Shown here: positions 1-2,810 of the stretch, piece by piece | How positions within the stretch are numbered: position 1 is the stretch's first letter | Layout of the letters: each line of letters begins with the position of its first letter | Source: a virus | Lineage: Duplodnaviria; Heunggongvirae; Uroviricota; Caudoviricetes | Virus record (IMG/VR): IMGVR_UViG_2778260979_000026 | Strand: one strand, 5' to 3' | Length of the DNA: 4,231 nt | Position numbers and translations under genes: made by a program | The notes under the pieces: model-generated | What the model saw: only the letters and a program-made list of their open reading frames with translations | Told to the model about the DNA's origin: nothing | Databases searched by the model: none

Positions 1-282
1 ACTGCGCATACGGGCCACCAGCAGAGGCGGCATTGCCTTTTCGATCGCCGGTAACAGAGCCTGCATTTTTTCAACAGCATCAGGGGTGTCTTTATCCAGC
101 CAACGGAAAATTTTCTGGGTATTACGAGCCAGGGCTTCCGGATGGCTGTCGTCGTACAGTTCCGGGAACGTCATCCCCAGTTCGAAATAAGTCCGGGCTA
201 TTTCAGCTGCAGGAACTTTCTCACCATCAGGATATGCCCAGGCATTCATCGCCATGCGGATGTGCTCATGTTTGATTTTCAT
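1..282 (-). CDS. ydaT: YdaT-like prophage regulatory protein, N-terminal part only; the gene runs off the left edge of the window
   Basis: Hand translation of the minus strand from ATG at 282..280 gives MKIKHEHIRMAMNAWAYPDGEKVPAAEIARTYFELGMTFPELYDDSHPEALARNTQKIFRWLDKDTPDAVEKMQALLPAIEKAMPPLLVARMRS, open to position 1. It is absent from the ORF track because there is no stop in the window. The N-terminus matches my recollection of Rac prophage YdaT (memory, not a search). A GAGG lies about 10 nt upstream of the ATG. The start overlaps the 3' end of the ydaS-like gene by 17 bp. The + strand ORF 33..275 is its antisense shadow. Confidence 0.7.
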   Translation of the reverse strand, partial: MKIKHEHIRMAMNAWAYPDGEKVPAAEIARTYFELGMTFPELYDDSHPEALARNTQKIFRWLDKDTPDAVEKMQALLPAIEKAMPPLLVARMRS

Positions 283-589
283 GAATCATTTGCCTCTTGA
301 TGCTTCGGGTATGATCGTTTTCGTCATTTGGTTGCTTCATCGACATATTCTGCGAATAACATGACGAGCGTCGTAAGTATGTCCAATCAACATCAGGACG
401 AAGTTCTTCACACAGGACACCACCTTTTGTTGCTCGTTCAATCGCAGGACATCTCTCAGCAGGCAACTGACGTACACCTTTGATCCATTGATTTACGCTT
501 GGAGGAGATACACCTAAAAGCCTAGCCATTGCTGATTGCCCACCGACAACAGCACAAGCTCGTTTGAATGAATAGTTATCTTTTTTCAT
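266..589 (-). CDS. ydaS: Cro-like helix-turn-helix DNA-binding protein (YdaS family)
   Basis: The ORF track protein contains MKKDNYSFKRACAVVGGQSAMARLLGVSPPSVNQWIKGVRQLPAERCPAIERATKGGVLCEELRPDVDW, which matches Rac YdaS closely from memory. I chose the ATG at 589..587, which has a GGAG about 7 nt upstream on the minus strand, over the track start at 610. It is divergent from racR across an operator region. Confidence 0.85.
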   Translation of the reverse strand: MKKDNYSFKRACAVVGGQSAMARLLGVSPPSVNQWIKGVRQLPAERCPAIERATKGGVLCEELRPDVDWTYLRRSSCYSQNMSMKQPNDENDHTRSIKRQMIHENQT

Positions 590-618
590 CGAATGAACTC
601 CAAAAAACACACAATAAT

Positions 619-713: not shown

Positions 714-1190
714 ATGCTTAGTGGTAAAGACTTAGGCCGAGCGATAGAGCAGGCCATTAACAAAAAAATTGCATCAGGAGCCGTCAAATCAAAGGCGGAA
801 ATCGCACGTCATTTCAAAGTCCAACCACCATCAATCCATGACTGGATTAAGAAAGGTTCGATAAGTAAAGACAAACTTCCAGAACTATGGCGTTTCTTTT
901 CTGATGTGGTTGGTCCAGAGCATTGGGGGCTTAACGAATACCCCATACCAACCCCATCCACTTCAGATACAAAAAGTGAACTTTTAGACATAAACAGCCT
1001 TTATCAAGCCGCCTCTGATGAAAAAAGAGCAATTGTGGCTTTCCTCTTATCTGGAAATGCTACGGAGCCTAGTTGGGTTGATCATGACGTTCGTGCCTAC
1101 ATTGCCGCAATGGAAATGAAGGTAGCTAACTATCTGAAAAATCAAGAATCAAAACGGAAAAGCCAGAACATCACCAAGACAGGAACTTAA
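714..1190 (+). CDS. racR: Prophage repressor RacR (CI functional analogue)
   Basis: The 158-aa product MLSGKDLGRAIEQAINKKIASGAVKSKAEIARHFKVQPPSIHDWIKKGSISKDKLPELWRFFSDVVGPEHWGLNEYPIPTPSTSDTKSELLDINSLYQAAS... is near-identical to E. coli Rac RacR as I recall it, at the same length. It is divergent from the cro-like gene and flanked on both sides by operator palindromes. Confidence 0.9.
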   Translation: MLSGKDLGRAIEQAINKKIASGAVKSKAEIARHFKVQPPSIHDWIKKGSISKDKLPELWRFFSDVVGPEHWGLNEYPIPTPSTSDTKSELLDINSLYQAASDEKRAIVAFLLSGNATEPSWVDHDVRAYIAAMEMKVANYLKNQESKRKSQNITKTGT

Positions 1191-1283: not shown

Positions 1284-1327
1284 ATTAGGCGTAGCCTATT
1301 GACAAGCAATTAGGCATTTCCTATAGT
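1284..1327 (+). promoter_or_regulatory. OL-type operators overlapping a near-consensus sigma70 promoter (pL analogue) reading rightward
   Basis: -35 TTGACA at 1299..1304, a 17-bp spacer, then -10 TATAGT at 1322..1327. Operator-like palindromes ATTAGGCGTAGCCTATT (1284..1300) and TAGGCATTTCCTA (1312..1324, one mismatch) overlap the -35 and the spacer/-10. A weaker half-site TATTAGGT lies at 1265..1271. Confidence 0.65.
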
Positions 1328-1427: not shown

Positions 1428-1658
1428 ATGACGGCAGGGTTCAACTTTAACTATGCAGCAGGTTTTTGTTCCGCTACCCCGGCGTTAAGGGGATATGAGG
1501 TCAGCATGGATACTCTTGATCTTGGCAACAACGAATCTCTGGTGTGCGGCGTGTTTCCCAACCAGGACGGCACGTTCACCGCGATGACGTATACCAAAAG
1601 CAAAACGTTTAAAACCGAATCTGGCGCGCGTCGCTGGTTAGCAAGAAACTCTGACTAA
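1428..1658 (+). CDS. Small hypothetical prophage protein, first ORF downstream of the pL-like promoter
   Basis: A 76-aa ORF with GAGG about 10 nt upstream of the ATG at 1428. An in-frame ATG at 1506 has a better-spaced GAGGT 5 nt upstream and would give a 50-aa product. Its position corresponds to the ydaG/ydaF slot of Rac. I do not recognise the sequence with confidence. Confidence 0.5.
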   Translation: MTAGFNFNYAAGFCSATPALRGYEVSMDTLDLGNNESLVCGVFPNQDGTFTAMTYTKSKTFKTESGARRWLARNSD

Positions 1659-1740
1659 TGAAATCTGGTAATTAAGGAATCCTCCACGGGGGGAGAGTGG
1701 TGCACACGCGCCGGACACAAGCAAGCATCCGGCATGCTCT

Positions 1741-1760
1741 TTAACAATCTGGATATCCAT
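1741..1760. repeat. TTAACAA-TCT-GGATATCC element 13 bp downstream of the stop of the antisense gene
   Basis: Contains the palindrome GGATATCC (1751..1758). ATCTGGATATCC (1746..1757, extendable to 13 bp) is the exact reverse complement of GGATATCCAGAT at 2313..2324. TTAACAA is also shared with 2324..2330. Confidence 0.5.
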
Positions 1761-1772
1761 AACAGTAAAAAT

Positions 1773-2264: not shown

Positions 2265-2302
2265 TGCTGCCGTTAATTCAGCGATCACATTCAATACTCT
2301 TA

Positions 2303-2348
2303 TTGTTGTTGGGGATATCCAGATTAACAAGATCCTTGTTGTTGGGGA
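2303..2348. repeat. Direct repeat TTGTTGTTGGGGA x2 (2303..2315 and 2336..2348) flanking GGATATCC-AGA-TTAACAA
   Basis: An exact 13-bp direct repeat with 33-bp periodicity. The palindrome GGATATCC (2313..2320) and TTAACAA (2324..2330) sit between and partly within the copies. The module lies between the start of the antisense gene and the remnant exonuclease gene. Confidence 0.6.
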
Positions 2349-2372
2349 ATAACGGGGACCACCTCGCCTGAC

Positions 2373-2810
2373 GTGGTAAAAAGCAGGCACACAACACGAA
2401 AGCACACGGCGAGGGACACCATTAAATGGTGGCTTAAGCAATCACGCGAAGCGCAATCTGCCATTATGACCGATGAAATCCCGTTAGATGATGCACTGTT
2501 ACAATTGCGGGAATTTATCGACGAAAACTCCGGTGAATTTTTTGTTCAGGTCTGGGGAAATGGAGCCAACTTCGACAACACGATTTTGCGCCGTTCATAC
2601 GAACGGCAGGGGATCCCCTGCCCGTGGCGTTACTACAACGATCGCGATGTACGCACAATCGTTGAGCTGGGGAAAGCCATAGACTTCGATGCCAGAACGG
2701 CTATTCCATTCGAAGGTGAGCGCCATAATGCACTTGATGACGCCCGTTACCAGGCAAAATACGTTTCAGTTATCTGGCAAAAACTGATCCCGAATCAGGC
2801 TGATTTTTAA
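2373..2810 (+). CDS. DEDDh-type 3'-5' exonuclease family protein (Rv2179c-like), apparently 5'-truncated
   Basis: The product carries an Exo II-like motif (WGNGANFDNTILRRSYER) and an Exo III-like Hx4D motif (HNALDDARYQAKY) but no N-terminal hydrophobic-strand/DxE Exo I motif. The first ~13 residues (MVKSRHTTRKHTA, from a GTG start) do not resemble the family. An in-frame ATG is at 2466. Neither start has a convincing Shine-Dalgarno. Confidence 0.65.
   Translation: MVKSRHTTRKHTARDTIKWWLKQSREAQSAIMTDEIPLDDALLQLREFIDENSGEFFVQVWGNGANFDNTILRRSYERQGIPCPWRYYNDRDVRTIVELGKAIDFDARTAIPFEGERHNALDDARYQAKYVSVIWQKLIPNQADF

Follow-up and report, generated by a model that had tools for sequence, protein, structure and literature searches.

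The promoter of sieB (PsieB) in phages lambda and P22 is the described element to which the locus analysed here can best be compared. Its transcription start has reportedly been mapped by RNase protection, and a mutation of its -10 hexamer is said to kill the promoter. Our literature search on the sieB promoter returned no relevant paper, and the position of the P22 promoter used below was taken from the GenBank annotation. Also relevant are the morons, which are said to be autonomous promoter-gene-terminator units in lambdoid prophages. With respect to the gene product, the closest described protein is Rip1, which a review (PMC13434031) presents with reference to Patel et al. 2026 as a single-protein prophage defence that senses portal or small-terminase rings and forms a pore. 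Here, we have analysed a pair of exact 13-bp direct repeats upstream of a Rip1-like gene in a lambdoid prophage and compared the leader in which they lie with these systems. As judged from homology, the 13-mers probably represent a C-rich box that is present twice in a prophage promoter and leader of the sieB type, dependent on sigma70. This would assign the repeats to a concrete promoter, one that would keep a Rip1-type abortive-infection gene on in an O157:H7-type prophage.

The window, that is, the whole stretch of 4,231 nucleotides that was analysed, is the early-left arm of a Rac-like lambdoid prophage beside potC in O157:H7-type E. coli (features are listed in Table 1). It follows the order racR, an OL/PL-like promoter at 1299-1327, ydaF and then, on the minus strand, the gene downstream of the repeats, hereafter the cargo; the equal slot is found in HK620, P22 and lambda. 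The dyad TAGGCnnnGCCTA is present in five copies, of which three separate racR from the cro-like gene and two overlie the PL-like promoter, which is near consensus (TTGACA-17-TATAGT), and these dyads resemble OR and OL operators in an immunity region of the RacR type. No N gene was found between PL and the TGCTCTTTAACAA site that borders the cassette. The cassette, which consists of the cargo and its leader, is also located before dicB in strain M8 and directly behind a LexA-family cI gene in e14/CPS-53-like prophages. On its other side, the exonuclease ORF corresponds to the final ~135 codons of a prophage exonuclease (823 aa) that other strains carry intact. Considering that the exonuclease homology starts at ~2413, exactly at the cassette junction, this gene was truncated when the cassette was inserted or replaced part of it.

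Table 1. Features of the window (positions in nucleotides from its first letter)
Feature	Position	Strand	Remarks
ydaS-like cro gene	266-610	-	
TAGGCnnnGCCTA operators	621-684 and 1286-1323		
racR	714-1190		
Strong PL-like promoter	1299-1327		
DUF1391 gene	1428-1658		
Hairpin GCCGGA..TCCGGC (1710-1733), then TGCTCTTTAACAA (1735-1747)	1710-1747	+	PL-sense strand, downstream cassette border; flank GATTGTTAAAGAGC conserved in relatives
Mobile cassette (cargo and leader)	1736-~2414		At least 3 different prophage contexts
Inverted partner of 2300-2325	1746-1771	+	Outer 13 nt AATCTGGATATCC perfect, then degenerate inverted box copy (CCATAACAG); just past cargo stop codon
Cargo gene, 171 aa, Rip1-family (ring-interacting pore) homologue by sequence, phrog_1244, WP_000559928.1	1773-2288	-	PDB and phrog matches
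Shine-Dalgarno AAGAG (2301-2297) and GTG start (2288-2286)	2286-2301	-	RefSeq start; homologous starts
Box 2 (DR2) TCCCCAACAACAA	2303-2315	-	Starts 5-6 nt past -10 hexamer; one arm of long inverted repeat
Palindrome GGATATCC	2313-2320		Discriminator, between -10 and box 2; centre of 13-nt perfect inverted repeat AATCTGGATATCC
Predicted extended -10 TGT-TAATCT	2329-2321 (hexamer 2326-2321, TGT 2329-2327)	-	TAAnnT columns invariant versus P22 PsieB, lambda, HK620 and others
Local inverted repeat GGTCC...GGATC around box 1	2331-2360	-	Weak in window; stronger, covarying arms in relatives
Box 1 (DR1) TCCCCAACAACAA	2336-2348	-	-35 position of predicted promoter; loop of local inverted repeat; aligns with P22/lambda TACCCCTACAG inside annotated PsieB
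Conserved 30-nt element GCCTGCTTTTTACCACGTCAGGCGAGGTGG	2359-2388	-	Most widespread part of leader; holds stem GCCTG/CAGGC
3'-5' exonuclease C-terminal domain remnant (Rv2179c-like)	~2409-2810	+	Cut off at cassette junction; xis and int beyond

The repeat unit TTGTTGTTGGGGA occurs exactly twice on the plus strand, at 2303-2315 and 2336-2348, with a start-to-start distance of 33 bp, and no third copy was found in the window even when up to two mismatches were allowed. The palindrome GGATATCC (2313-2320) lies between the copies and overlaps the final three bases of the first. These coordinates bear out the sequence-only reading, which had described an exact 13-bp repeat, present twice 33 bp apart around a palindrome. 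A chance origin of the pair is unlikely: two matches to TTGTTGTTGGGGA were reached by only one of 200 dinucleotide shuffles, and exact direct repeats of at least 13 nt within 60 nt appeared in 16 of 5000 first-order Markov simulations of the window. In a cassette with 93.6% identity both 13-mers were 100% conserved, three spacer bases between the copies being different, and a Klebsiella phage with no more than 51% identity in the protein has kept both repeats as well. The 13-mer repeat is real and conserved, and the persistence of the pair in homologous loci, which had been set beforehand as a check, was found in both of these relatives. The same reading had noted that a long minus-strand ORF (1773-2441) translates each copy as SPTT and had considered this long version artefactual. 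The ORF does read SPTT twice; on the other hand, the RefSeq start is the GTG at 2288 and the homologues in the Klebsiella phage, HK620 and others start at the aligned codon, thus the repeats are non-coding and the artefact claim holds. Its placement of the repeats in the promoter region of the antisense gene, with divergent genes on either side, also proved right.

Read on the minus strand, the repeats are TCCCCAACAACAA and are located 15-60 nt upstream of the GTG start. In the direction of the cargo, the leader is composed of the conserved 30-nt element, box 1, a TAAnnT hexamer and box 2. Enterobacterial homologues have a common leader comprising a ~30-nt element (GCCTG(y)CTTTTnnCCACnTCAGGCnnGGTGG), a C-rich box, ~20 nt containing TAAnnT, a second box, a Shine-Dalgarno sequence and the start codon. 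Different contexts have unrelated DNA upstream of the 30-nt element, where a divergent start codon is often met directly, and the promoter must therefore be a local one. In a BLAST search, the HK620 hkaP leader matched the DNA preceding sieB in lambda and P22 at ~85%. In AF527608 (P22-pbi), 'P sieB' is annotated as TGTACCCCTACAGCGAGAAATCGGATAAACT; this stretch has box 1 close to its 5' terminus, in the -35 zone, and closes with TAAACT, the hexamer that separates the boxes; box 2 starts 7 nt later. A 7-way alignment that included the window had a mean column identity of 75%, with TGCCTG, CTTTT, CCAC, TCAGGC, GGTGG, CCCC-A-CA, TAA--T and CCCC-AC as invariant blocks. The window leader is homologous to PsieB and shares its layout and conserved blocks.

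The promoter type itself is already known (the lambda/P22 sieB type, which is widespread in prophages), and the repeats are probably not a new regulator array. It should be noted that the repeats had previously been considered not to form a typical sigma70 layout. This view is not supported, as the homologous P22 region is the annotated PsieB with its 3' hexamer TAAACT between the boxes, and TGT-TAATCT is present at the equivalent place in the window. Overall, the interpretation offered by the sequence-only reading was right about the promoter region, the divergent genes, the artefactual ORF and conservation, whereas its view of the layout as atypical of sigma70, its regulator array and its arm sites were not supported (the latter two are considered below).

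For the window, we infer from homology both promoter activity and a transcription start. RNA polymerase would use the extended -10 TGT-TAATCT (2329-2321) between the two copies, and box 1 would occupy the -35 zone. As box 2 begins 5-6 nt past the -10 hexamer, it is predicted to contain the transcription start and would, from about +1, provide the first dozen bases of a short 5'UTR, with the ribosome-binding site AAGAG and then the GTG start (2288) behind it; the product of the transcript would be a Rip1-like abortive-infection protein. The -35 match of the predicted promoter is poor (TTCCCC), and a consensus promoter scan of the window did not call the sieB-type promoter. Since the cargo is antisense within the early-left (PL) operon, it might be expressed from its own promoter in the lysogen, with PL transcription overriding it on induction.

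By pattern scanning of viral contigs, and with the E. coli and phage loci added, 125 distinct leaders were collected, and the box pair was identified in 66 of them. The period of the pair was 33 bp in 37 leaders, 34 bp in 19, and 32 bp and 35 bp in five each. A TAnnnT hexamer was present 5-8 nt before box 2 in all 66 paired leaders (TAATCT in 37, TAAACT in 8, TAAAAT in 7, TATAAT in 3, and others). Box variants were never mixed within a pair (44 CCCCAAC/CCCCAAC and 16 CCCCTAC/CCCCTAC), these matched pairs corresponding to only 2-3 independent lineages. The CCCCAAC variant characterizes the group of the window and CCCCTAC that of HK620/lambda/P22, and TTCCACAGTCAAA was observed twice in one further contig. 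The palindrome GGATATCC was not conserved, and relatives with both boxes intact had GAAATCC, GTAACACT or GAGTGA instead. Three leaders from E. coli and viral contigs (L141, L177 and L192) kept the element, box 1, the -10 and TAATCTGGAT, and then continued into another 5'UTR (GACTCTG...) without box 2. Other cargos lie behind these three leaders and the breakpoint is the centre of the palindrome; thus, not every cargo requires box 2. In four cargo-less lambda-type leaders, compared with that of HK620 (L007), the promoter was fused to CACCCCCTTATTTTGTCAGGGGG, which would fit a deletion or an acquisition of hkaP between two short direct repeats, CCTCTTACCCC and CCTCTTCACCCCC.

The leader was present in 2778 of 5426 complete E. 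coli genomes (about half), and at least 30 unrelated protein clusters, all small genes, were found behind it. Among the ten clusters scanned, only SieB reached its own Pfam family cut-off, and one other was recognized as 'ECs1072 family'. Given that the leader fronts at least 30 unrelated small genes of which only SieB and Rip1 have known functions, it offers an inexpensive sequence marker by which further defence or exclusion genes expressed in lysogens can be sought.

The cargo in the window is, by sequence comparison, a homologue of the anti-phage pore protein Rip1. It matched PDB 9oox_L (Rip1) with E=3.6e-7, query residues 14-150 aligning with chain residues 28-159 (137 residues), and phrog_1244 with E=1e-57. 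PADLOC, Pfam and NCBIfam searches with the cargo protein gave no family, its identity coming from the PDB sequence search alone, and a protein-guided scan of genome contigs for the cargo gave no confirmed locus. Homologues were found as lone antisense genes in Klebsiella phage Kp4882-1 (51% identity), HK620 (hkaP), HK446, Pseudomonas Mu-like phages, DMS3 and others. The aligned part of 9oox_L is identical to an N-terminal stretch of the HK446 protein, whose gene lies behind a lambda-type leader.

How the repeat arose can be suggested less firmly. Most likely, it would descend from an old tandem duplication of ~33 bp that covered a 5'UTR/start unit ('box, ribosome-binding site, spacer, start codon'), and the A/T-rich spacer and start region of the upstream copy would now serve as the -10. 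Such a duplication is favoured by the constant register in which the stretches after box 1 and after box 2 align across families, with a Shine-Dalgarno-like sequence opposite the Shine-Dalgarno sequence and the -10 opposite the start-codon region. The alignments are individually weak (P22, GAGAAATCG--GATAAAC versus GAG-AATCGCCGATGAAC, p=0.04; lambda, p=0.018; leader L198, p=0.04), and that of the window has the same register and is not significant alone (p=0.39). In 'short' leaders the element is followed by an extended -10 (TGgTATnCT), a covarying inverted repeat, a Shine-Dalgarno sequence and ATG, with a single box-like sequence in the inverted-repeat loop, for example, TTCTCACACAG or TCCCTACAA. 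In all 'long' leaders the upstream hexamer is damaged (ATCCTG, TTCTCG or TTTCCT) and a new -10 is found 20-odd nt further on. However, decay would be expected of a simple relic, whereas box 1 is conserved to the same degree as the -10, lies inside a hairpin that covaries and has, in each lineage, always the same variant as box 2, which hints at some further function.

Promoter function alone does not explain the covarying hairpins, the matched boxes and the inverted repeat that flanks the cargo. First, the arms of the box 1 hairpin, whose covariation was scored by script, change together (ATCCT/AGGAT, TTCTCG/CGAGAA, TTTCCTT/AAGGAAA and TCTGG/CCAGA, with six further arm types in short leaders), and their pairing is almost purely Watson-Crick without strand bias. 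Second, the stem of the 30-nt element (GCCTG/CAGGC) has the compensatory variants GCCCGG/CCGGGC, GCCCG/CGGGC, GCCGGG/CCCGGC and GCCTT/AAGGC; these were read directly from the leader listing, as a loose regular expression for the stem was swamped by noise. Because homology with P22 places the transcription start downstream of both hairpins, the cargo mRNA probably does not contain them. Finally, an inverted repeat of 26 nt (1746-1771 versus 2300-2325, 81%) encloses the cargo, its predicted duplex having an energy of -27 to -28 kcal/mol versus about -10 for shuffles. Over 11 loci the duplexes ranged from -21 to -33 kcal/mol (shuffles, about -10), the PL-sense form being slightly more stable in 8 of the 11, and the positions that are not Watson-Crick were mostly A-C on the cargo strand, which is G-U on the PL strand (24 versus 10). 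The right-hand flank GGATATCCAGATTGTTAAAGAGC with a terminator was found behind at least four different cargos, and in L141 the inverted repeat extends into cargo-specific sequence with compensatory changes (ATCC/GGAT versus GACT/AGTC). At the downstream border of the cassette, TGCTCTTTAACAA (1735-1747) presumably matches the boxA of rRNA operons, and the order of a hairpin followed by boxA would likewise be rRNA-like; the region 1710-1747 may represent an N-independent antitermination site for Rac/e14-like prophages.

All these parts could be combined if the leader were a structured modular platform, made up of the covarying stem of the 30-nt element, the box 1 hairpin, box 2 and, in the sub-family of the window, the long inverted repeat by the boxA-like site. 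Acting on the PL transcript or on DNA, such a platform would couple shut-off of the defence gene to induction and would mark exchange points for dozens of unrelated defence-like genes, with the 13-mers serving as pairing or crossover boxes. We consider this unlikely, at about one chance in a handful. The hairpins, the matched boxes and the cargo-flanking inverted repeat may bear on how prophages silence their own defence genes at induction.

It is quite unlikely, in our estimation, that the repeats act as RNA on the PL-sense (plus-strand) transcript. There, the G-rich complement of box 2 would form a long-range stem of 20-26 bp with the sequence just past the boxA-like site at 1735-1747, and the complement of box 1 would lie in the loop of the local hairpin beside the second conserved hairpin; the effect would be to guide processing (RNase III being one candidate) or read-through, or to silence the antisense cargo once PL is active. 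The recurrence of the inverted repeat around different cargos, the compensatory changes inside cargo-specific sequence and the duplex energies relative to shuffles are in agreement with this idea, as are the greater stability of the PL-sense form in 8 of 11 loci, the A-C positions that become G-U on the PL strand, and the location of the covarying hairpins upstream of the P22-annotated promoter and hence probably outside the cargo mRNA. However, one strand is preferred only weakly over loci that are not independent of each other, and the long inverted repeat reached significance in the AATCTGGAT sub-family only, and neither in lambda-type nor in short leaders. When 2270-2400 was folded as a single sequence, neither strand did better than shuffles, and an Rfam scan of the whole window (E<=10) gave two chance miRNA-like hits only. 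RNAalifold reported no consensus pairs for 22 mixed leaders, because the alignment mixes families with indels, and an exact search of viral contigs for the 'empty' palindromic site AATCTGGATATCCAGATTGTTAAAGAG found none.

The sequence-only reading had regarded phased repeats around a palindrome as typical of a regulator-binding array. In such a model, a sequence-specific host or phage protein would bind both boxes on the same face, at -35 and +1, and would repress or activate the cargo promoter, which seems to us rather doubtful. It would be in accordance with strongly conserved boxes separated by a variable spacer, with box 1 and box 2 variants that are always equal per lineage and with the predominance of a 33-34 bp period, and the poor -35 match would suit an activator. 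On the other hand, the cassette encodes no regulator (its one gene is non-HTH), and no DNA-binding protein accompanies the repeats. The cargos (at least 30 families) and the repressors (RacR-type, LexA-family cI, lambda cI and the P22 immunity region) vary independently of the box type, and the operators of the prophage itself (TAGGCnnnGCCTA) are unrelated to the boxes. Moreover, the period spans 32-35 bp, box 2 is absent from some relatives, other sequences take the place of the palindrome in relatives, and the matched boxes amount to 2-3 independent lineages only. An array of this kind is therefore not what the leaders suggest.

We regard as highly improbable the possibility that the boxes are recombination or cassette-exchange sites, that is, short homologies for swapping cargo genes in the sieB slot. 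The homology between leaders of different cargos does stop right past box 2, hkaP of HK620 lies between CCTCTTACCCC and CCTCTTCACCCCC with one hybrid copy in cargo-less relatives, and the cargo of the window sub-family is located between the halves of a palindrome, AATCTGGAT and ATCCAGATT. However, no recombinase is linked to the site, the pair is found in prophages with unlike attachment sites and gene contexts, and the segment from box 1 to box 2 consists of just 20 bp of promoter sequence and not of a cassette. Junctions past a functional promoter would be expected anyway with ordinary homologous exchange, and a microhomology deletion explains the cargo-less case equally well. Box 2 could still be a module junction or crossover point.

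Several other candidates were rejected. Integrase arm-type or att repeats, which the sequence-only reading had named as an option, do not fit a pair ~750 bp upstream of int, with the exonuclease remnant and xis in between and with attachment sites and gene contexts that differ among the phages. A Hin/Gin-type invertible segment would lack an invertase, and we know of no hix-like core at the boxes. By eye, sigma54, sigmaE and sigma32 promoters gave no match. The CA-rich box expected for a GcvB/Hfq-type sRNA target is not kept in lambda-type leaders. As for tandem RNA-repeat systems (type III toxin-antitoxin or a mini CRISPR array), only 13 of 33 nt are repeated, the remainder aligns no better than shuffles (window p=0.39), and there was no Rfam match.

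Thus, a sieB-type promoter and leader remains the reading that we prefer, and it can be compared with known systems at several levels. Lambda CII-type and iteron-type promoter sites resemble the window in having short direct repeats around a promoter element with a weak -35. However, the CII repeats (TTGC-N6-TTGC) flank the -35 only, whereas the copies in the window are 33 bp apart, at the predicted -35 and +1, and no cognate protein is linked to them. The cassette also shares several properties with morons: it is a single gene with its own (here predicted) promoter and, in relatives, its own terminator (GCGTCC..GGGCGCTTTTTT), and it is inserted between, and opposite to, operon genes in several prophage backgrounds. 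In contrast with morons, each of which has its own promoter, one promoter-leader module is common to at least 30 unrelated cargo families at one slot.

At the protein level, Rip1 (9oox) and the cargo are alike in having an N-terminal helical half and a C-terminal CxxC...CxxC half, and both are encoded by prophage-borne lone antisense genes. The cargo, whose activity and trigger are putative, is only 27-31% identical to the HK446/9oox and Pseudomonas versions of Rip1, and it is situated in the early-left operon, whereas Rip1 lies between terminase genes. The closest correspondence is with PsieB of P22 and lambda, which has the same 30-nt upstream element, the same order of box, TAAnnT hexamer and box, the same period of 33-34 bp, and the same antisense position inside the PL operon just past the immunity region. 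The differences are that the box is CCCCAAC in the window and CCCCTAC in PsieB, that the -10 is TAATCT with a TGT extension rather than TAAACT, and that the gene behind it encodes a Rip1-like protein rather than SieB. Unlike PsieB, the sub-family to which the window belongs has an extra 13-nt perfect inverted repeat around the cargo.
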